Source: Candidatus Multivorans sp. (GTDB lineage Bacteria; Acidobacteriota; Thermoanaerobaculia; Multivoradales; Multivoraceae). From it: a stretch of DNA of 64,000 bases. This document shows positions 1 to 10,662 of this stretch, one piece after another (position 1 is the first letter of the stretch; the number at the start of each line of letters is the position of its first letter). The translations under genes and the position numbers were made by a program. The stretch covers positions 992,001-1,056,000 of the forward strand of contig OZ245033.1 of the NCBI GenBank assembly GCA_965224025.1, written 5' to 3'. The notes beneath the pieces were generated by a model. It was not told the origin of the DNA. It did not search any database and saw nothing but the letters and a program-made list of their open reading frames with translations.

Positions 1-152
1 ACCTGTCGGGAAGGCCGGGTCTTGATCCAGCCGAACGGGCTGTCTTGCCAAGGGTCCCGTTCGACCTCTACGTACTCATCGCGGAGCAGCGCTGCGTAGA
101 GCGCCAACTCGCGCACCTCCGGATCGGCGATCGACTCCACGGCCTTGTTCAT
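1..152 (-). CDS. Partial CDS (runs off window), putative restriction endonuclease partner of the methyltransferase
   Basis: ATG at 152 overlaps the MTase stop (ATGA); reads MNKAVESIADPEVRELALYAALLRDEYVEVERDPWQDSPFGWIKTRPSRQV. Function inferred from coupling only. Confidence 0.5.
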   Translation of the reverse strand, partial: MNKAVESIADPEVRELALYAALLRDEYVEVERDPWQDSPFGWIKTRPSRQ

Positions 153-1150
153 CGCAACAGGCCCAACTGTTCAGACTCACTTGCTCGAATAGCCAACCGA
201 CGGAAACTCCCGTCGACGTAGCCCACGCCCGCCGTTCCCAAGCGATTGGCCATGACCGCGATGGCTTCGTCGTTGCTGTCGATCATCACGAAGTGCCTTC
301 CCATCTTCTGGGCGACGGCGGCCGCCGTCCCGGATCCGGCGAAGAAGTCGAGCACCCAGTCGTTCTCCTGCGACGACGCGCTCAGTATCCTTCGCAGGAT
401 GCCCTCCGGCTTCTGCGAGGCATAGCCCGTCTTCTCCTTTCCGTTCGTCGGCACGATGGTGTGCCACCAGACGTCTGTCGGCAGTTTCCCGCGTTCAGCC
501 TTCGCCTTCGAGACAAGACCGGGCGCCATGTACGGGATCCGTTCGATCGCATCCTGGTCGAAGAAGTAGCGATCGGGATCCTTGGCGTACACGAGGATTG
601 TGTCGTGTTTCGCGGGCCACTTCCGACGCGAGCGTCCGCCGTAGTCGTAGGCCCAGATGATCTCGTTCACGAAGCACTCGCGTCCGAAGATCTGGTCGAG
701 CAGCACCTTGCAATAGTGCGCCTCCCGGTAGTCAAGATGGAGGTAGAGGGTGCCATCGGGGGTCAACAGTCGGCGCGCATGCTCCAGACGCGCTCTGATG
801 AATGCGAGGTAGTCGTCGAAGGCGTCCTCATAGGACGTCGTGCCGAGCTCGACCGTACGGTACCGCCTCCCGCCGAACCCGACCCTGTCGCCTTCTTGCG
901 AGCGGACAGTGGAGATCTCCTTCCGCTGCTGGACCTTGCCGGTGTTGAAAGGCGGATCTATGTAGATCAGGCGAAAGAACTCCTCGGGAAGCGCAGGGAG
1001 CACGTCAGCGTTGTCAGCGTGGACCACCCAGTCGCATCTCCCGTCAAGGCAGACGCGCTTGCACTGAGTCTCCGCGAGACGCGTGTCGGTCCCAGCCACG
1101 CCGGGATTACTGCTTCGGCTTCTTCGGGCCGGCACGGTCACTTGGTCCAC
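149..1150 (-). CDS. Site-specific DNA N6-A/N4-C methyltransferase (beta class)
   Basis: Motif IV IYIDPPF precedes motif I VLDFFAGSGT; true start may be downstream of 1150. Confidence 0.92.
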   Translation of the reverse strand: MDQVTVPARRSRSSNPGVAGTDTRLAETQCKRVCLDGRCDWVVHADNADVLPALPEEFFRLIYIDPPFNTGKVQQRKEISTVRSQEGDRVGFGGRRYRTVELGTTSYEDAFDDYLAFIRARLEHARRLLTPDGTLYLHLDYREAHYCKVLLDQIFGRECFVNEIIWAYDYGGRSRRKWPAKHDTILVYAKDPDRYFFDQDAIERIPYMAPGLVSKAKAERGKLPTDVWWHTIVPTNGKEKTGYASQKPEGILRRILSASSQENDWVLDFFAGSGTAAAVAQKMGRHFVMIDSNDEAIAVMANRLGTAGVGYVDGSFRRLAIRASESEQLGLLR

Positions 1151-1231: not shown

Positions 1232-1876
1232 CTAGCCGAGCACTTCGCATTCCTGGCACACCCAAGTCGTTCGGCGATCCGGTGAGTAGCGAAGGACACG
1301 GAGCTTGGCAGCGACGGTCAGACTCCGCGCACTCTTCATGAGTTGAAGGAGGTTGGCAGGCACCCAGAAAGTGTAGCTGTTCAACGCGTCGGCGGCCTGT
1401 TCGTGGAGCGTGACGCGACCCCAAATGCCCTTCCCGAGGTCGCCAAGCGCCGCCGCTGCCATCGTCGTCCGCGGTACCTTGAGTTTCCGGTACACGTCGA
1501 CCCGCCCCTGAACTCGCGAAGCATGCCGACGACGTCCGCTCCGGTGAGTTGAACCGGATCAACTCGGCGAATCGGATCCGGCTGGCTCGCTCGCCTGTCG
1601 GCCACGACCTCGGGACCGATCCCTCCGGTAGGCGGGCGCTGGACAGTGATGCCGCGCCTCAGCTTGACCGTGACCGCTCCGCCGGGCGTCCGCCTCCGTT
1701 CCAGGTTCCGCGCCCAGAAAATGTCGCAGTCGTGGAGCGGCCACGGAGGGCCGAGTTCATCGAAGAAGACCTTGCAGCCGCTGTCGCACTTGTAGAAGAA
1801 CACGCGGCACTCGCAGCCCAGGACAGGTGGTGGGCCAGGTAACCGCGTTGCACCAAGCACCATGGACGGAGGGCAT
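1232..1876 (-). pseudogene. Cys/His-rich putative zinc-binding protein with two frameshifts
   Basis: GAGGT RBS + ATG 1876; restored reading MPSVHGAWCNAVTWPTTCPGCECRVFFYKCDSGCKVFFDELGPPWPLHDC; extra G near 1818, missing G near 1505. Confidence 0.6.
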
Positions 1877-1924
1877 CTGGACCTCAACTCCTATTCTCGT
1901 GAGTCCGCGGAGACACGTCGTTGC

Positions 1925-4900
1925 CTACCGATCGGACCGAATCGGTACACCCTGCCGGTACTGCTCGAGCCTCCGGTTCAGAAGCTCCACGAGCCGCTCC
2001 CGGTCAGCCGGCGCCGCCTGCTGCCGCCCGGAGCCGCCGAGGATCTCCAGAGCACTTTCGACCGTTCGTACCGCGGACTCGAAGTCGCCGGTCTCGGCGT
2101 AGGCCGCCGCCAGGGTCTCGAGCAGGGCCGGCTCGGCGCCGCCGGCAACCGCGTTGAGTTCCAGGGCGATCACCAGGGCAAGCTGGCCGTCCCTGCGGGC
2201 GGCGTCGCGATCGGTCGCCAGGGTCCAGGCGAGGTCGTTGCCCCGCGCGAGCAGTCGCTCGTCCTCGACGTAGGCGCGCCGGAGTTGCTCGGCGCCCTCC
2301 GCGGCTGTGGCCGGTCCGCTCTGGAGCAGCGCCAGCCCGAGTGCGTGGCGGCCGGCGGCGTGATCGGGGTCGTGTTCGAGGAGCGAGCGGTATCCCTCCA
2401 CCGCTTCTTCCAGCCGGCCCGAAGCGGCCGTCACCTGAGCGGCGCCGAAGAGGGCAGAGGCGTCGCGGGGCTCGACCGCGAGGATCGCGCGGTAGTGCGC
2501 TGCCGCGGGTTCCAGATAGCCGCTGCGGACGGCCGCGACGGCCAGGATCCGGTGCGCCTCCACATGCCGCGGGTCGCGGTCGACAACCGCCGCGAATTGC
2601 TCCATCGCTTCCGACAGCCGGTTCAACTTGCCAAGCAACTGGCCGTAGAGGTATCTGAGATCCACGTCGTCGGGGCTCTGCTCGACGGCCCGACGAAGTT
2701 CCTCTGCCGCGGCCTCCGTTTGCCCCTCGCTGTCCAGGAGTTCGGCAAGCCGCACTCGGGCGCCGACATTGCCGGGCTCCGCGGCGAGCGCCGCCTCCAC
2801 CTCGCCGCGCACCTGGTCCACGTCGCCGGCGTCGACCAGAGCGTTCTGGTAGGCCATCCGCGCGGCCGGATCGTCCGGTTCGAGGTCCAGAGCGGCGCGG
2901 GCGTAACGCACGGCGGCCCGGTTGTCTCCGCGCCGGCTCTCGATCACCGTCAGACGCTGGAGCGACTTGAACAACCGGTCCCGCGCGCCGCGCTGCTCGA
3001 ACGAGGCCGCGACGACGCCGTCCGCCCGGCTTCCGACCAGCCGCGCCTGCTCCACCTCGACGGACCGTCGCAGCAGGGACACGGATTCGGCGGGGAAGCT
3101 GTCCTCGAACCAGCGCGCGTAGCTCGCGAGCGACACCTCGGCCGGCGGATCGGTAAACCAGCGGCCGGCGACCGGCGCCGACTCGGCTCGCAGCGTGGAG
3201 TGCGGCGCGTCGAGCAGTTCAAGGTCGGCCAGAAGATCGCCGGCGGTCACGCCGCCGCGGTAGAGAACGGCGACCCGGCCCTCGCCGTCCACCAGCATGG
3301 AGAACGGCAGCGACAGCGGAAAGCGCCGGTCGAAGAGCGACCGCTTGACGATCTCGACCTTGTCGAGGGTCTGCTTCGTCGCCATCCCGTTCAGGAAGGG
3401 GAAGCCGATCTCGTCCATGAACTTCCGAGCCGACTCCTCGGTCGTGCTCGGCACGTCGCCCATTCCGTCGGTCGACAGCGCCGCGATCTCGAGGCCGGCG
3501 GCGCGTAGCGCGTCCTCTTCGGCCGTCAAGTCGCGCAGCTCCGAGCGGCAGGGAGCACACCAGCTCGCCCAGATATTGACCAGCACCGGGCGACCCCGTC
3601 CGATCGCGATCGGCGCCGGTTCCCCGGCGCCGAAGGGACGGAGCGTTAGCTGCGGCGAAGGCGGCCGCGGCGCCAGCACGACGCGGGCGCCCGTGGTCGG
3701 CGCGGGCGGCCGCTGATCGCTCGGTTCGAGGGTCCTGCCGCGACTCAGCGCCGGCTCGGGCACCACCCGGCCGCTGCCCTGGACGATCCGGTAGCGGCCG
3801 CCGGCCGCGATGCCGCCGAACGCCTCTCGCCCGGCGCCCGGCCAGTGGACGGTCACCGTACCCGTCGGTTCGCCGTCGCCGAGGCCGAAGTGCAGCCAGC
3901 GGCTGGACTGAGAGAGAAAGCCCTCGCCGGCGCGCACCGACCGCCGCAGGATGCCGTCCGTCGTCTCGAGCTCGACCCGAGCGCCCACCGCGTCCCGGTT
4001 CGTGCCGGCGCCGTCGCCTTCGAGGTACAGCGCGACGAAGCGGCCGCCCGCGGGCAGTTCGTTGCGCATCAGCCGCAATCGGGGCGCGGTCCGGTTGCTG
4101 ATCGCCACGTCCAGGTCGCCGTCGCCCTCCAGATCGAGGAAGGCCACGCCGCGGCCGTCGTCCGGAAAGTCCAGGCCGCTCACCGCCGAGGCGTTGGCGA
4201 AGGCGCCGCCCGCCGTGCCGGGGTTCAGGAAGACGCAGTTCCGCTCGTTGCCGCTGAAGGACAGCCCCTCGTCCAGCCGCTCGTGAAGCGCGCGCAGGGA
4301 TTCGAGATACGGCGCCAGCGAACGGGCATCCGGAGCACTGGGGGCACGCGGCACGACCTGCCGCCAGAAGAAGCTTCACAGGTCGTCCGGAAGGGTCTGG
4401 GTCAGGTTGCCGTTGGCTACGACCAGATCCTCCCAGCCATCGTTGTTGATATCGGCGAACACCGACGACCACGACCACCGGCCCATCGTCACCCCGGCCT
4501 GGACGCTCCGGTCGACGAACCCGCCGCCCGTGCCCGCGAACAGGGAGTTGCCGCGGGCCATCCGCTGGACCTCCGCCAGCGGACCGGCCCGCTGCCGGTC
4601 GCGCTCGAACTTCCGCTGGTACGTGATTCGGTTGCCGGCGGCCGAGAACATGTTGCCGACGTAGATGTCCATGCGGCCATCGCGGTTGTAGTCGGCCCAA
4701 CTCACCGACATTCCGGACGAAATGTCCTCGACGCCGGCGCCGGCCGCCACGTCGACGAACGAGCCGCCTTCGTTCCGGTACAGATTGTTGCGGCCGTAGT
4801 CGTTCGCCACGTAGAGGTCCGCGTCGCCGTCGCCGTCGTAGTCTTCCCAGGACGCCGCCAGACTGAAGCGGCGGTTGTTGCGGTCGAGCCCCGCCGCGGC

Positions 4901-6199
4901 CGTCGCGTCGACGAAGCGGAAGCCGCCGTCGTTGCGCAGCAGCACGTTGCGGCCGCCGTTGTTCGCGTCGTGGTACGGCGCCGGGCTCGCCACTCCGCGC
5001 TCGTCGTAGGCGCGGCGGTAGGCGCAGACGTAGACGTCGAGGTCGCCGTCGCCGTCGTAGTCGGCCGCCGACAGCGAGTTGCTGTCGGGGATGTCGCCGG
5101 CGATGTAGCGGACGCGGGCGAAGCCGCCCTTGCCATCGTTCTCGAGCACCAGCACCGCAGGCCGGCTGGAGAGCACCAAGTCGGGATCGCCGTCGTTGTC
5201 GAGGTCGACGAACAGCCCGGCGAGGGCGCGCTCCAGGTAGTCGACCGCCGCCGCCGCCGAACGATCGTCGAACACGCCGGTCGGGTTCTGCACGTACAGA
5301 CGGTTCGGCAGTCCGCCCTGCTCGGGAAGGAAGATGTCGTCCAGACCGTCGCCGTTGACATCGGCGACGGACACGCCCTGCCATCCCGTCTTGTTGTAGC
5401 CCGCCGCCTTGGCGATCCGGTTGAGCCAGGCATCCGGTGGCTGCAGCAGTTGCTCCCGGTAACTCGAGTTGTGGCCGACGGCGGCTTCGGTGACGTCCAC
5501 GAACAGGGCCCCTCCCGCCGCGGACGTCTCCTCGTAGTCGCTCATCTCGACCGTCCGCAGGAGCGGCTCGCCGGCGCCGCCCTCGGGCAACGTCCATGTC
5601 GTCGTCCAGACCGCGTTCAACTGGCGGTCGCCCGCAGCACCGGCGACCGACGCCTCGAAGTAGGAGCGGGTCGTGAAGCTCGACCCATCGCCCTCGATCG
5701 TGAAGAGCTTGAAGTCGGCCCGCGGCGATCCGCTGCCGGTCAAGCGCCCGCCCAACACCAGCAGCGCGTCCACGAAACCCTCGACGCCCCTATAGGCGAA
5801 GGGCCCAGGCTGGCCGACACTCACGGTGAAAGTCGCACCGGCGTAGCGCTCGCTCAATTCGCCGGGGACGAAGCCCCGGGTCTCGAACGTCTCGTCAACC
5901 GCCTCATCCAAGGCATCCAGCGACACCGAGGCCACGCCGCCTTCCAGCCAGCCCGCGATGCGCTTGAGCTGCGCCTCGGCCTGTTCGCTGAGCGCTTCGC
6001 TGTCCCAGCCGTCGGCACGGGGATCGACGGCGGCGGCGAAGTTCTGCGGTCCGAAGGCGGGAGATGTCTCAACAGCCGCGGCCGCCGCGCGGCGATCCTG
6101 GGCCACCGCCGTCGGTAAGGCGCCCAGCAGGACTACCGCCGAGAGCGTAGCCGCAGCAGGCAAGACAGACGGTGGCTTCAACGAGGTTCTGAGCGCCAT
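1925..6199 (-). CDS. Exported FG-GAP/CRTAC1-like + ASPIC/UnbV + thioredoxin-like + TPR protein with in-frame TGA (candidate selenocysteine) at 4378-4376
   Basis: ORFs 4376..6286 and 1925..4354 share a frame: PDDL*SFFWRQVVPR; DxDGDGDxD repeats on both sides of the TGA; NRDAVGARV and GEGFLSQSS (ASPIC/UnbV); WASWCAPC; TPRs; signal-peptide-like N-terminus from ATG 6199. Confidence 0.8.
4348..4364 (-). promoter_or_regulatory. Candidate bacterial SECIS stem-loop
   Basis: UGA-AGCUUCUUCUG (11 nt)-GCGGCA-GGUCG-UGCCGC: perfect 6-bp stem, G-first loop, GCAGGUC shared with the E. coli fdhF SECIS. Confidence 0.72.
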
Positions 6200-6357
6200 T
6201 CGGCACGCGGGTGCTGAGTTCGGCGAAAGCGGCGTCTTCAAGCACGGCGAAGGAAGAGCCCTCGGCAGAAGGCGGCGATCCCGCAACGGAGGTCACACGG
6301 CGCGTTGGACTCTATCGGCAGCGCACTGACACCAGAGCCGCCGGCAAGCCCTCAATT

Positions 6358-6366
6358 TGCTATCAT
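6358..6366 (+). promoter_or_regulatory. Possible -10 box / antitoxin operator half-site
   Basis: TGCTATCA(T) upstream of the FitA-like gene matches the half-site I recall for Neisseria FitAB; only one clear half-site. Confidence 0.3.
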
Positions 6367-6408
6367 TTCGCCCGCAACACGTCCCTCGAGCCGAAGGGAG
6401 ACTACGAA

Positions 6409-6645
6409 ATGGGGAACTTGACTGTCCGCAACCTCGACGATCGCGTTGTGGATCAACTAAAGCAGCAAGCCCGGGAGAACCACCGCTCCCTGGAGGCCGA
6501 GGTCCGCCACCGTCTCACCGAGAGCGTCTCGAACCGGCTCCGCAGGGCAACGTTCCGCGAGCGCGCGAGGCGTCTTGCAGAGGCGACAGCCGGCACACCT
6601 CAAACGGACAGCACGATCCTGATTCGCGAAGATCGGGACCGTTGA
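6409..6645 (+). CDS. FitA-like ribbon-helix-helix antitoxin
   Basis: MGNLTVRNLDD...ARENHRSLEAEVR...TDSTILIREDRDR; GGAG RBS. Confidence 0.85.
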   Translation: MGNLTVRNLDDRVVDQLKQQARENHRSLEAEVRHRLTESVSNRLRRATFRERARRLAEATAGTPQTDSTILIREDRDR

Positions 6646-7478
6646 GGGTCACGGTCGATGCGAGCGTCGTCATCAAGTGGTACGTGGCCGAACCACGGCG
6701 GGCTGCAGCGCGCCTTCTGCTCGAAGACGGCATCGACTGCCACGCGCCCGACTTCGTCCTGATCGAATGCGCCAACGTTCTCTGGAAGAAGAGTCGCCGG
6801 AAAGAAATCGCAGACCCGGCTCTTCTCCTCGAAGAGATCCAACGGTCCGAAGTCGTCAAGCTTCACCCTTCGGCCAGCCTGCTGCTCGATGCGGCGACAA
6901 CGGCGGATGAGATAGGCCACCCCGTGTACGACTGTCTCTACATCACATGCGCTCAGCACACCGACTCCACGCTGGTCACCGACGATCGACGGCTGACGAA
7001 CGCCGTCCAGGAGAGACTGCCGTCACTCCCGGTACTGAACCTCCAGGATCCGGAGGCGACCCAGACCATCGCAGCAGCAGCTATCCGGCTAGTCATCGAC
7101 CCGGGCAGGCTCGATGAGCTACTCGGCGCCGTTCGACGGCTTGACGCCACCAGTGAGAACATCCTCAAGACCTGGCTCCGCGAAACCGGCGGATCCAGGA
7201 GCGCCGGGCCCGAAGAACGCGCTCTACTTGAGGACTCGATCCCCGTTCAGGAACTGCTCCGTCTCATCGGTGGGTTGAGCGAAGACGAGCGCGTCGACCT
7301 ACTGGCGCTCGGCTGGCTCGGCATGAGCGGCTCGGAGACCGAATCCTGGGATCGCCTGCTCATCCGCGCGAGTGAAGCGGCCGGGAGGTTCGACGCTCGG
7401 CAGATTGCGAATCTCTGTCACTACTGGGCCAAGGGTCGGGACCGTCTCGCCAGGCTCCGCACGCACACTCCCGCGTAA
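6642..7478 (+). CDS. vapC: VapC/PIN toxin with C-terminal extension (DUF3775-like)
   Basis: TTG overlapping antitoxin stop; VDASVVIKW, ECANVLWK, YDCLY, LVTDD; extra helical domain LSEDERVDLLALGWLG. Confidence 0.82.
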   Translation: MRVTVDASVVIKWYVAEPRRAAARLLLEDGIDCHAPDFVLIECANVLWKKSRRKEIADPALLLEEIQRSEVVKLHPSASLLLDAATTADEIGHPVYDCLYITCAQHTDSTLVTDDRRLTNAVQERLPSLPVLNLQDPEATQTIAAAAIRLVIDPGRLDELLGAVRRLDATSENILKTWLRETGGSRSAGPEERALLEDSIPVQELLRLIGGLSEDERVDLLALGWLGMSGSETESWDRLLIRASEAAGRFDARQIANLCHYWAKGRDRLARLRTHTPA

Positions 7479-7532: not shown

Positions 7533-9749
7533 GTGCGCCCCAGTTCAAGGATCCCCTTCGGCCTGGGGCAGACCAAGCCGCACCACTTCCTGGAGATGGG
7601 GAAGGTCGCATGGCACAACCGGGATGAGGCCGCGTACGCGTGGCGCATCCTGCGCGACGGAGTCTGCGACGGTTGCGCCCTGGGCACGTCGGGTTTGCGC
7701 GACTGGACCCTCGACGGCGTCCACCTGTGCATGGTGCGTCTCGACCTGCTGCGGCTGAACACGATGCCGGCGCTCGACCCGGCCGTTCTCGCCGACGCCA
7801 AGGCTCTGGCCGCCCGCGGCTCCACGGCGCTGCGCGGTCTCGGGCGGCTCGCGCACCCGATGCTGCGACGGGCCGGCGAACCCGGGTTCCGGCGGATCGG
7901 CTGGTCCGAGGCGACCGACATCGCGGCCTCCGCGCTCGCGGAAGTCCGGCAACGCGATCCCGCGCGCGCGGCCTTCTTCCTGACCTCGCGCGGCATTCCC
8001 AACGAGACCTACTACGTGGCGCAGAAGGCTGCCCGCTTCTTCGGCACGCCCCATGTCGATACCGCCGCCCGCCTCTGCCACGCCGCCTCCACGGTGGCCC
8101 TGCATCGCGCGCTCGGATTCGGCGCCGCGACCAACTCCTATAGCGACTGGCTCGACGCGGACCTGATCGTCTTCTTCGGCTCGAACGTGCCGAACAACCA
8201 GCCGGTGACGATCAAGTATCTCCACGTCGCGCGCCGCCGGGGAGCCGAGATCGCGGTCGTCAACCCGTATCGCGAGCCCGGACTCGAGCGCTACTGGGTG
8301 CCGTCGGTCCCTTCGAGCGCCCTGTTCGGCACCGACCTTGCCCAGCACTGGTTCGCCGTCGACACCGGCGGCGACCTCGCCTTCCTGAATGGCGCGATGA
8401 AGGCCCTGCTCGATCTGCCAGGAGGCGTCGCGCGCGCCTTCGTCGAACGCTCCACCCAGAACTTCGCCGAGGTCGAGGCGGCGCTTGAGAGCACTTCCTG
8501 GTCTGAGCTCGAGCGCTCAAGCGGCGCCTCCCGCGCCGAGATGGAGCAATTCGCCGGGCTTCTCTGCTCCAAGCCGAAGACCGTCCTGGTCTGGTCGATG
8601 GGGCTGACCCAGCACCGCCACGGCGTCGACACCGTGCTCGCGATCTGCAACCTCGGCCTGATGCGCGGCCTCCCAGGCCGTCCCGGCGCGGGCCTGGTTC
8701 CGATCCGCGGCCACTCCGGCGTCCAGGGCGGTTCCGAGGTCGGCTGCGCTCCGGTGACCGAAGCGGAAACGCTCGACCGTTGGGCCGGGGTCTGGGGTTT
8801 CGAGCCCCCGCGCGGTCCCGGACTGGCCGCGACCGGCCAGATCGAGGCGGCGGCGGCCGGAGACATCGATGCGTTCTGGATACTCGGCGGCAATTTCCTG
8901 GAGACGACGCCCGACCGCGAGCGGATAGAGACCGCGCTGCACCGGCCGAAGCTCCGGATCCACCAGGACATCGTGCTCAACAGCGCGATGCTGGTCGAAC
9001 CAAGCGACACGGTACTGCTGCTGCCGGCTACGACCCGCTACGAGATCCCCGGAGGCGTGACCGAGACGACGACGGAGAGGCGGATCGTCTACTCGCCGCC
9101 GATCGGCTACGGAGGCGCCGAGGCGCGGCGGCTCGGCGAATGCCGCCCGGAGTGGGAAGTGCTGTGCGAGACCGTCTCCAGGGTCCGGCCCGAACCGCCA
9201 GGCGCCCTCGACTTCGCCAACACGACCGCGATCCGCGACGAGATCGCACGCGCCGAACCGCGCTACGCCGGCATCGAGCACCTGAAGCGGAAGGGCGACG
9301 AGATCCAGTGGGGCGGTCCGCGGCTGTTCGAGGGTGGACGCTTCGCGACCCCTTCGGGCCGAGCCGGTTTCCACGCCGTCGAACTGCCCGCGGAGCGCGC
9401 CCTCAGGGATGGCGAGCTCTTCCTCTCGACCCGCCGCGGCCGCCAGTTCAACTCGATGGTCCATGGCCGGCGGGACGCCCTGACCGGCCTCGAACGCGCC
9501 GACCTGTTGATGAATGCCGGGGACGGCAGTGCCCGCAAGATCGGCGAGGGGGACCGCGTCGTCGTCTCCTCGCCGGTGTCACGGATCGAGTTGGTGGCGC
9601 GCTTCGGAGCGATCAAGGCGGGCAACGTCGAAGCGCACTGGCCGGAGTGCATGGAGCTGCTGCCCTGGTCACTGGATCCCGACTCAGGCGAGCCCGAATA
9701 CGGAGTTCGGGTCAAGGTCGAACGGGTGGACGCGGGCCGTGACGGCTAG
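7533..9749 (+). CDS. FdhF/YdeP family molybdopterin oxidoreductase
   Basis: CDGCALG, ARLCHAAS, PIRGHSGVQG, STRRGRQFNSMV. Confidence 0.9.
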   Translation: MRPSSRIPFGLGQTKPHHFLEMGKVAWHNRDEAAYAWRILRDGVCDGCALGTSGLRDWTLDGVHLCMVRLDLLRLNTMPALDPAVLADAKALAARGSTALRGLGRLAHPMLRRAGEPGFRRIGWSEATDIAASALAEVRQRDPARAAFFLTSRGIPNETYYVAQKAARFFGTPHVDTAARLCHAASTVALHRALGFGAATNSYSDWLDADLIVFFGSNVPNNQPVTIKYLHVARRRGAEIAVVNPYREPGLERYWVPSVPSSALFGTDLAQHWFAVDTGGDLAFLNGAMKALLDLPGGVARAFVERSTQNFAEVEAALESTSWSELERSSGASRAEMEQFAGLLCSKPKTVLVWSMGLTQHRHGVDTVLAICNLGLMRGLPGRPGAGLVPIRGHSGVQGGSEVGCAPVTEAETLDRWAGVWGFEPPRGPGLAATGQIEAAAAGDIDAFWILGGNFLETTPDRERIETALHRPKLRIHQDIVLNSAMLVEPSDTVLLLPATTRYEIPGGVTETTTERRIVYSPPIGYGGAEARRLGECRPEWEVLCETVSRVRPEPPGALDFANTTAIRDEIARAEPRYAGIEHLKRKGDEIQWGGPRLFEGGRFATPSGRAGFHAVELPAERALRDGELFLSTRRGRQFNSMVHGRRDALTGLERADLLMNAGDGSARKIGEGDRVVVSSPVSRIELVARFGAIKAGNVEAHWPECMELLPWSLDPDSGEPEYGVRVKVERVDAGRDG

Positions 9750-10662
9750 GCCGCCCGAGACCACCGAGCGCCCGGCAGCCCGCGCGGCGCTCGTCGAGCG
9801 GGACGCCGGCGACGTGCGGAGCGACCGGGTGGCGATCGAAGAGCCGCTGGAGATCCGCGTCGACGGCGAGGCTCTCGTGGTCACCATGCGCAGTCCGGGC
9901 GACGACGCGGAACTGACCCTGGGATACCTCCATGCCGAGGGCTGGATCGAAGAACTCGCCGATGTCGACGCGGTCACCGCCGGCAACGCGGCGCCTACCG
10001 GCGGGCAGCACGACGCTCACGCGGCCGCTGACTCGACCAGCGTCCCGGGTTCGATCGTCGATGTCCGGCTATCCGGCAAGGGGCGTAGACGCGCCCGCCT
10101 GCGGGCCGCCGCGAGCGAGCGCGAGCGGGCTTTCCGCGTCACCAGCGCCTGCGGCGTCTGCGGCAAGCCCTCGCTCGAAGACCTGTGGGTCCGCCTGCCG
10201 GCGATCCGGCCGCTGGCCCTCGAACCGGACCGCGAACGACGACTGGTGCAGGGCCTGCCCGCGGCGATGCAGGAACGCCAGACGCTGTTCAGCGACACGG
10301 GAGGCGTTCATGCGGCCGCCCTGTTCGATGTCGACGGCAGCCGCGCCGAGCTGTTGTGGCTCTTCGAGGACATCGGTCGTCACAACGCAGCCGACAAGGT
10401 CGTCGGGCAAGCGCTTCGATCCGGACGACTGCCCCTGGAATCCACCATGCTGGCTGTGAGCGGCCGCCTCGGCTTCGAGATCGTCCAGAAGGCGGCGGTC
10501 GCCGGCGTACCGCTGATTGCCGCCGTTGGAGCGCCGTCCAGCCTGGCGCTGGACATTGCCCACCTGGCGGGTATCCGCATCTACGCCTTCGTTGCCGGCG
10601 ACCGCAGCAACCTCTATCCCGCGGCGCCGGTCGAAGCGCGCCCGGTAACCGGCGCCGATTGA
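9739..10662 (+). CDS. fdhD: Formate dehydrogenase accessory sulfurtransferase
   Basis: EEPLEIRV, TMRSPGDD, SACGVCGK, TGGVHAA, EDIGRHNAADK. Confidence 0.93.
   Translation: MTARPPETTERPAARAALVERDAGDVRSDRVAIEEPLEIRVDGEALVVTMRSPGDDAELTLGYLHAEGWIEELADVDAVTAGNAAPTGGQHDAHAAADSTSVPGSIVDVRLSGKGRRRARLRAAASERERAFRVTSACGVCGKPSLEDLWVRLPAIRPLALEPDRERRLVQGLPAAMQERQTLFSDTGGVHAAALFDVDGSRAELLWLFEDIGRHNAADKVVGQALRSGRLPLESTMLAVSGRLGFEIVQKAAVAGVPLIAAVGAPSSLALDIAHLAGIRIYAFVAGDRSNLYPAAPVEARPVTGAD

Follow-up and report, generated by a model that had tools for sequence, protein, structure and literature searches.

Locus and read-through frame

The DNA considered here, called the window throughout, is the whole analysed stretch of 64,000 nucleotides (nt) from the acidobacterial genome of Candidatus Multivorans sp. 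(contig OZ245033.1, positions 992,001 to 1,056,000), and its subject is a minus-strand gene made of two open reading frames (ORFs) that lie in one frame on either side of a single TGA. In an earlier note on this DNA, the TGA had been interpreted as a selenocysteine (Sec) codon joining the two ORFs into one exported protein; this interpretation is supported by the comparative analysis given below, from which it is very probable that the TGA at 4376-4378 is a Sec codon and that Sec is inserted into a single full-length protein. The gene is probably a member of a large selenoprotein family, real and undescribed, that is distributed over at least three phyla.

The minus-strand sequence at window positions 4390-4346 reads CCG GAC GAC CTG TGA AGC TTC TTC TGG CGG CAG GTC GTG CCG CGT, where the ORF 4376..6286 (636 amino acids, aa) terminates at the TGA and the ORF 1925..4354 (809 aa) follows beyond it in the same frame; the feature lies at the coordinates stated in the earlier note. 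When the TGA is read as U and the ATG at 6199 is taken for the start, a protein of 1424 residues is obtained with the sole U at position 608, in the context ...NGNLTQTLPDDL-U-SFFWRQVVPRAP... and with the core junction ...TLPDDL-U-SFFWRQVVPR.... The start was placed near 6199 because several orthologues have a frame that opens no more than 605-606 codons upstream of U; in the orthologues generally, the open frame runs to about 1400-1600 aa and contains exactly one TGA. The N-terminus, MALRTSLKPPSVLPAAATLSAVVLLGALPTAVA followed by Q, shows by eye a basic start, a hydrophobic core and an AxA motif, and on our own reading of the translation it is likely to be a Sec-type signal peptide of the export pathway; the N-termini of homologues are lipobox-like or signal-like. 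The genetic code is standard, because TGA closes 47 of the 69 long stop-to-stop frames in the window, being the commonest terminator there. Of the 18 matches in the same genome, the gene itself is the sole carrier of a TGA, and none of its paralogues has one. The features of the gene are collected in Table 1.

Table 1. Features of the candidate selenoprotein gene in window coordinates.
Feature	Position	Strand	Basis or remark
Whole gene	1925..6199	-	1424 codons plus stop 1925-1927; one in-frame TGA read through
ATG start and likely Sec-type signal peptide, residues 1-33, ending in AVA before Q	6101..6199	-	Translation read
FG-GAP/VCBS beta-propeller, about residues 275-735, broken by the helical insert with the predicted Sec	3995..5377	-	Pfam, AF2, Foldseek
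UGA very probably read as selenocysteine, U608	4376..4378	-	TGA, same column in 179/206 unique loci
U608 and helix 608-618 (USFFWRQVVPR)	4346..4378	-	AF2 secondary structure
SECIS-like hairpin GCGGCA-GGUCG-UGCCGC	4348..4364	-	Sequence, folding, covariation, published model
UnbV_ASPIC, residues 737-803	3791..3991	-	Pfam PF07593, 1.6e-14, 54 bits vs cut-off 23.4
TlpA/ResA-like thioredoxin-fold domain, residues 868-978	3266..3598	-	Pfam AhpC-TSA 34.9 bits vs 26, 1.7e-08
WCAPC motif, C881 and C884	3548-3559	-	Within the TlpA/ResA-like domain; CxxC 273 residues past U608
C-terminal tetratricopeptide repeats (TPR), about residues 1089-1386	2042..2935	-	Pfam TPR_19, TPR_14, others; NCBIfam TPR models

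Conservation of the in-frame TGA

Relatives were collected by searching whole genomes, with the stops read through, with a query of 261 aa around the site. Within the genus, an orthologue with exactly one TGA was found in every genome searched, 24 at first and then 41, so that the codon is conserved at one column with coding conservation on both sides (88-96% identity). In the order, 79 of 300 genomes gave a match at E <= 1e-25, and the site-spanning matches carry nearly all one TGA (G234 has Arg); in the phylum, 78 of 401 genomes matched at E <= 1e-30, 57 of them with the TGA form and 21 with sense forms only. By a pattern scan of one genome per species, at least 595 stretches were obtained, at least 589 of them confirmed, and in the best 80 of these the column is occupied by TGA in 79 and by Ala in one. 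According to the record titles, the best 80 loci belong to Acidobacteriota (Holophagae, Thermoanaerobaculia), Verrucomicrobiota (Roseibacillus, Akkermansiaceae) and Planctomycetota (Pirellulales, Phycisphaerae), and a TGA private to this assembly, which the earlier note had considered, is thereby set aside. Over all the loci fetched, TGA stands at the site in 179 of the 206 unique ones, the counts across relatives being not independent and two unpublished genomes (G347, G448) adding one row each to some of them.

The codon is met in several sub-group contexts, such as DL-U-SFFWRQVV, DT-U-S[IV]FWRQV, DA-U-P[LI]YWRQV, DT-U-SFFWRHVV and DL-U-LP[YF]...GAVAH. The codons right after it vary synonymously (AGC/AGT, TTC/TTT) with the residues S-F-F-W constant, and the region past the TGA is therefore translated.

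In the public protein collections the genus orthologues are represented by nothing but pieces of about 800 aa, which cover 50-52% of the query, some of them named 'tetratricopeptide repeat protein', and 57 of the 114 database proteins examined begin with MPRAP or VPRAP, i.e., at a GTG codon within the hairpin described below. With HMMER, 18,147 matches at E <= 1e-3 and 315 at E <= 1e-30 were obtained among 1.84 billion representatives; among the best 150, 13 terminate exactly at ...DL and six start just past the site, these being the two halves of TGA genes. Thus, the splitting of the gene by standard callers, as anticipated in the earlier note, is seen in the C-terminal pieces of the genus and in the N-terminal pieces ending at ...DL, and the remark that the downstream ORF has no convincing start fits the public gene calls. 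The same records also speak for a true stop, in which case a 607-aa FG-GAP gene would be followed by an ASPIC-thioredoxin-TPR gene of about 800 aa starting from the hairpin GTG, with products that assemble later, or the whole would be a decaying pseudogene. This explanation is barely credible: the seven codons between the TGA and the GTG keep their amino acids through synonymous changes, as translated codons do; FG-GAP repeats are matched by Pfam on either side of the TGA, so that the stop would fall inside a domain, as the earlier note had held, and within one propeller of the confident single-chain model presented below; the sense-codon homologues are single continuous proteins across the site. 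Decay of a pseudogene is contradicted by the preservation of the one TGA column in 179 of 206 loci and in three phyla.

Two side observations were made among the relatives. Tandem copies of the short 'DL-U-LP[YF]...GAVAH' type occur at L092 (G116:C5) and L105 (G036:C23), where the second copy follows directly downstream and has its own TGA. TGA forms of the Verrucomicrobiota/Planctomycetota type are found at L211, L232 and L184 in metagenome-assembled genomes titled 'uncultured Enterobacteriaceae', 'Flavobacteriaceae' and 'Akkermansia muciniphila'; these labels look doubtful and may be binning or naming errors.

Hairpin downstream of the codon

The hairpin described in the earlier note was confirmed by reading the sequence: the TGA is followed by a spacer of 11 nt, AGCUUCUUCUG (4375-4365), and then by GCGGCA (4364-4359), the loop GGUCG (4358-4354) and UGCCGC (4353-4348). 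In isolation it folds at -11.6 kcal/mol (z = -2.71; 1 of 200 shuffles equally good). The model of the bacterial selenocysteine insertion sequence (SECIS; bSECIS for the bacterial type), in the constraints quoted from PMC13188914, comprises a loop of 3-9 nt, an upper stem of 4-16 base pairs (bp), a G in the first two loop positions, a UGA-to-loop distance of 16-37 nt and a minimum free energy <= -7.5 kcal/mol, and all these quoted constraints are satisfied by the window hairpin, with a loop of 5 nt, a stem of 6 bp, GG and a distance of 17 nt. A scan of window 4200-4500 with Rfam at E <= 10 gave two chance-level matches and no SECIS family.

The comparison of stems was performed on 138 unique segments of 60 nt, counting a contiguous stem that starts 8-18 nt past the codon. 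A stem of at least 6 bp is present in 95 of the 109 Sec segments versus 8 of the 25 sense-codon homologues sharing the xxxW motif, only four of these eight having it at the homologous offset (L121, L124, L135, L138); by this comparison the hairpin is much rarer in sense-codon homologues with the same FFWRQVV motif. The loop Val is encoded by GTC in 87 of 104 Sec forms versus 7 of 25 sense forms. The six core pairs are formed in 84-97% of the cells when 100 unique Sec sequences are compared, and the covariation proposed as a check in the earlier note was found at one stem pair, 18-28, with compensatory changes (GC 36, CG 31, GU 15, AU 6, UA 5, other 7) and a covariation score of 0.200; shuffles gave 0.083, none of 500 reaching the observed value, and slid partners did not exceed 0.089. 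In the AT-richer Verrucomicrobiota and Planctomycetota the neighbouring codons shift to T-ending ones with the letters of the hairpin kept.

Residues at the site in sense-codon relatives

The site is spanned by 130 of the best 150 representatives, five of which are distant multi-repeat proteins with doubtful alignment, and it holds E in 43, S in 21, D in 21, A in 16, N in 9, Q in 5, C in 4, M in 3, G in 3, R, T and L in one each and a gap in 2. Cys at the site was recognized in eight homologues (P0003, P0007, P0014, P0132, P0153, P0207, P0215, P0241), the last four of them from a second search; P0003 is the best-scoring representative at 55% identity. The tabulation suggested in the earlier note yields, therefore, TGA in the large majority of loci, E, S, D, A or N in most sense-codon relatives and Cys in a few close ones, so that replacement by Cys, as a sign of a selenoprotein, is represented only weakly.

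Selenocysteine machinery

The source genome (5.14 Mb, 3 contigs) holds all the components for which the earlier note had proposed a search: a tRNA-Sec of 74.8 bits, designated SeC with the anticodon tca by ARAGORN, SelA (1.1e-103), SelD (2.8e-76) and SelB, the wing domain of which (3.9e-18) lies in an open frame of 589 aa. In the phylum sample SelA is found in 301 of 401 genomes. When the TGA form and SelA were cross-tabulated by eye there, SelA was present in 53 of the 57 genomes with the TGA form, the other four (G522, G605, G379, G546) having tRNA-Sec, and in 17 of the 21 sense-only genomes, the four without it (G397, G501, G465, G511) being of one genus. SelA also accompanies the TGA form in 5 of 5 genomes from Verrucomicrobiota and Planctomycetota. 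Thus, the TGA form was met in no genome lacking every sign of Sec decoding among the genomes tested, and the supposition that TGA-bearing homologues occur regardless of the Sec machinery does not hold, as each TGA-bearing genome tested has it.

Several observations weigh against the assignment. The column in the wider family is mostly not Cys, unlike that of most selenoprotein families, and the site need not be catalytic, because E, S, D and N are ordinary N-cap residues of helices. The 48 nt after the TGA fold like their shuffles (z = -0.45; 60 of 200 equally good) in a window of 67.5% GC, so that the hairpin alone is weak evidence and the case stands on the comparative data, not on the thermodynamics of one sequence. 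The motif W-R-Q-V-V-[APS] is conserved in the sense forms too and itself favours pairing; a part of the hairpin sequence is, consequently, dictated by the protein. Some Sec sub-groups have stems of only 4-5 bp or other loops (CGUCG, triloops), and the Glu form L121 (G384:C389), with GAG at the site, has a perfect hairpin GCGCCA-GGUCG-UGGCGC about 11 nt on, which may have been left by a lost Sec codon or have arisen by chance from the WRQVVAR motif. The co-occurrence with SelA says little within the order, where SelA is near universal (277 of 300 genomes). A convincing SelA match is missing in five TGA-form genomes, namely the four of the phylum sample named above, including G379, which is 99% complete, and G182 of the order.

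These five genomes, together with the fact that the inserted residue is not readable from sequence alone, are the points in favour of read-through by a near-cognate tRNA (Trp, Cys, Arg) or of another SelB-free recoding, by which a full-length protein without selenium would be produced. This is very improbable, since the hairpin is of the bSECIS type, co-varies and lies at the canonical distance; all five genomes hold a high-scoring tRNA-Sec (68-76 bits), and among the genomes tested the TGA form is never met without Sec machinery; TGA is a regular terminator in the window under the standard code; Cys takes the place of the TGA in the best-scoring relative and seven further ones. The missing SelA match could be explained by a gap in the assembly, by divergence of SelA or by a different route to Sec-tRNA.

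Domain organization and predicted structure

The predicted Sec protein consists of a signal peptide, an N-terminal domain, a CRTAC1-like FG-GAP propeller, UnbV/ASPIC, a TlpA/ResA-like thioredoxin domain and TPR, in this order. Its membership of the CRTAC1/ASPIC-UnbV type is given by the Pfam matches FG-GAP_3 (1.8e-40, 137.8 bits), FG-GAP (1.7e-24, 85.7 bits) and UnbV_ASPIC, each over its cut-off. The thioredoxin fold with an active-site CxxC is recognized by the AhpC-TSA match, by the WCAPC motif and by ResA and TlpA structures, which Foldseek aligns with this domain at E of about 1e-9 to 1e-7. The NCBIfam matches for TlpA/ResA/DsbE (residues 857-990) are below cut-off (50.2 vs 230, 32.4 vs 170, 28.8 vs 123), and the domain, therefore, resembles these proteins but belongs to none of these named families. 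None of the selenoprotein models of NCBIfam attains its cut-off on the 1424-aa protein.

The AlphaFold2 (AF2) model was built for residues 36-1040 from an alignment of 95 rows, its numbering being that of the protein minus 35. The mean predicted local distance difference test score (pLDDT) is 94.3 and the predicted template modelling score (pTM) is 0.94, with pLDDT of 95-98 in the blocks around model residue 573, i.e., at the junction. There, U608 (model 573) opens the helix 573-583 directly after the strand 568-571. The top match of the model in the PDB by Foldseek is murine CRTAC1, 9etn_A (E 1.3e-25, template modelling score 0.72 on the target). The N-terminal domain, residues 36-270 (window about 5390-6094, minus strand), is modelled confidently as helices with a four-stranded antiparallel sheet and is conserved in the family; neither Pfam nor NCBIfam has a match to it.

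Association of Sec with a downstream CxxC

A CxxC at 230-330 residues past the site was found in 167 of the 168 Sec loci long enough to be judged (11 further ones being too short) versus 4 of 23 sense loci. It is of the W-C-x-x-C type in 145 of these 167 loci, and none of the four CxxC-bearing sense loci has the W. In the alignment A1, WCxxC is present in 9 of 9 Sec rows and in 2 of 4 Cys rows (P0003, P0132), and most other rows have degenerate DxxS, SxxS or HxxG at these columns. The three unfused Sec forms examined (L104, L106, L107) are each followed by a gene that ends in an AhpC-TSA/Redoxin domain with WCxxC. The local context is not CxxU, as reported in the earlier note, and not UxxC either; however, a Sec standing alone in a calcium-binding propeller is improbable, because (W)CxxC accompanies Sec so regularly, in the window protein 273 residues downstream.

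The tree of the family, computed with FastTree on 254 rows clustered at 80% from 334, requires 16 changes of the Sec label, or at least 8 on well-supported branches. On the opposite side of the balance is the test of Sec against CxxC that takes relatedness into account, which is not significant (7 independent pairs, median p 0.25), CxxC going the same way in about 3.5 and the opposite way in about 0.1 of the seven contrasts. The pattern of Sec with CxxC thus appears consistent in the sequences compared, and statistically unsecured once relatedness is allowed for.

Proposed mechanism and its rival

The comparison shows an in-frame TGA that is conserved, a hairpin that co-varies, genomes with Sec machinery, Cys in near homologues and a joint distribution of Sec and CxxC; from these features we infer the incorporation of selenium and a contact of U608 with C881/C884, as well as the reaction and its substrate. 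The hairpin GCGGCA-GGUCG-UGCCGC would recruit SelB with Sec-tRNA(Sec), and the ribosome would place Sec at residue 608 and continue to one exported protein of 1424 aa. The selenol of U608, at the N-terminus of a helix after a beta-strand, the usual position of a redox-active Cys or Sec, would be the reactive group of an oxidoreductase working outside the cytoplasm; the WCxxC in the fused thioredoxin-like domain would recycle U608 or swap a selenenylsulfide with it, and in the unfused forms the WCxxC domain of the neighbouring gene would serve as the partner of Sec. Reduction of the TlpA-like domain may itself come from a membrane system of the DsbD/CcdA type, by which proteins of the TlpA-like class are reduced. 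To such an extracytoplasmic Sec-CxxC redox relay about an even chance is given.

A further and more tentative proposal, held at somewhat under even chances, is that Sec arose at a helix-cap position of CRTAC1-type proteins, where most relatives have E, D, S or N, and not from a pre-existing catalytic Cys, that it acts with the fused TlpA-like CxxC, decayed where Sec is absent, and that a widespread undescribed family of extracytoplasmic selenoenzymes has been formed in this way. If so, a two-domain Sec-CxxC active site would exist outside the thioredoxin fold, with repeated gain and loss of Sec, hundreds of species of Acidobacteriota, Verrucomicrobiota and Planctomycetota would carry this selenoenzyme family, and the first functional handle on the enigmatic CRTAC1/ASPIC fold would be obtained.

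Alternatively, Sec may be inserted without any redox relay, as a ligand of a soft metal or metalloid (for example Cu, Hg or As), maybe with the CxxC as a further ligand, or as a residue that binds substrate or caps the helix for structural reasons, which is rather unlikely. The residues E, D, S, N and Q in the column of the sense forms are typical metal ligands or N-cap residues, the propeller has many ion-binding loops of the Dx[DN]xDG type, TlpA-type domains act on copper proteins, as indicated by the titles of the structures 4txo and 4txv, and metal-binding selenoproteins are among the entries of the 2026 catalogue as given in PMC13188914. Opposed to it are the thioredoxin-like W-C-x-x-C form that the motif takes in most Sec loci and the flanks of the gene in the window, among which metal-handling genes are not found. 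The strand-to-helix junction at which AF2 places U608 also has the geometry usual for redox residues.

Neighbouring genes

The gene is flanked by an N6/N4 DNA methylase (149-1150, minus strand) and by an ORF with a PIN domain and DUF3775 (6357-7478, plus strand), neither of which suggests an operon partner; the ORF 1381-1887 (minus strand), directly downstream of the selenoprotein gene, has no Pfam match. Farther on, a molybdopterin oxidoreductase (PF00384, PF01568; 7533-9749, plus strand) is followed by a gene of the FdhD/NarQ family (9514-10662, plus strand), the two possibly forming a formate-dehydrogenase-like pair. A second Sec codon upstream of the molybdopterin oxidoreductase was considered and ruled out, because the in-frame stop at 7476-7478 is not TGA.

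Significance and comparison with known systems

With the family, a catalogue in which small thioredoxin-fold proteins prevail gains a large exported multi-domain protein. The mis-split gene is probably present in hundreds of species, since at least 589 stretches were confirmed, and because the phyla concerned are, by the record titles, common in soil and sea water, the family bears on estimates of selenium demand. As most sense-codon homologues have no Cys at the site, it would largely evade screens based on Cys homology, and it offers selenoprotein finders a good test. We know of no function established for bacterial CRTAC1-like proteins; the pairing of Sec with CxxC, as it appears in the sequences, points to a redox chemistry that is directly testable.

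Regarding novelty, Table 1 of PMC13188914, the 2026 catalogue of 119 prokaryotic selenoprotein families, has no entry with FG-GAP, ASPIC, CRTAC1 or propeller. FG-GAP, ASPIC, VCBS, CRTAC and propeller are unmentioned in the main texts of deep-Sep 2025 (PMC12013277), BSepDB 2026 (PMC13326102) and PMC13188914, as are FG-GAP, ASPIC and VCBS in those of the GOS study (PMC2398784) and the ISME J 2016 survey (PMC5029168). A literature search for a selenoprotein of the CRTAC1 type (FG-GAP, ASPIC, VCBS, UnbV) returned only unrelated papers.

As compared with the CRTAC1/ASPIC-UnbV family, the window protein has the three Pfam matches FG-GAP_3, FG-GAP and UnbV_ASPIC over their cut-offs and 9etn_A as the best PDB match, and the databases list its relatives as 'CRTAC1 family protein' or 'VCBS repeat-containing protein'. 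It differs from CRTAC1 by the predicted Sec in a helical insert of the propeller, the extra N-terminal domain, the fused TlpA-like domain and the TPR, and shares only 18% sequence identity with 9etn_A. With TlpA, ResA and DsbE it has in common the AhpC-TSA match at residues 868-978, a fold of the ResA/TlpA type, W-C-x-x-C and a predicted export signal; unlike in these proteins, the domain is one module of 1424 aa, and its CxxC is degenerate in most sense-codon relatives. A weak match to NF041054 (residues 848-915; 32.2 vs cut-off 300) is so far under the cut-off that the protein is not a member of that family.

As a bacterial SECIS, the hairpin has the expected place in the coding region right after the UGA, a 5-nt loop starting with GG, a 6-bp stem and a distance of 17 nt, and differs in being partly dictated by a protein motif common to the sense-codon homologues. 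In the fdhF element of E. coli, the stem-loop starts 11 nt after the UGA, has a GGUC loop and contains in the upper stem a bulged U that is important there; the window hairpin shares the GGUC loop and the 11-nt spacer, but its 6-bp stem is perfect, without the bulged U.

The closest selenoproteins are the predicted exported bacterial ones with a TlpA/ResA domain listed in Table 1 of PMC13188914, which share export and the TlpA/ResA-like domain with the window protein. In these families the Sec lies within the active-site motif of the thioredoxin domain, whereas in the window protein this motif is all-Cys and the predicted Sec precedes it by 273 residues. Taken together, the gene is very probably that of a bacterial SECIS-dependent selenoprotein, which is unusual in its setting in a CRTAC1-type propeller, in relatives that mostly have no Cys at the column and in a CxxC partner that belongs to a different domain.

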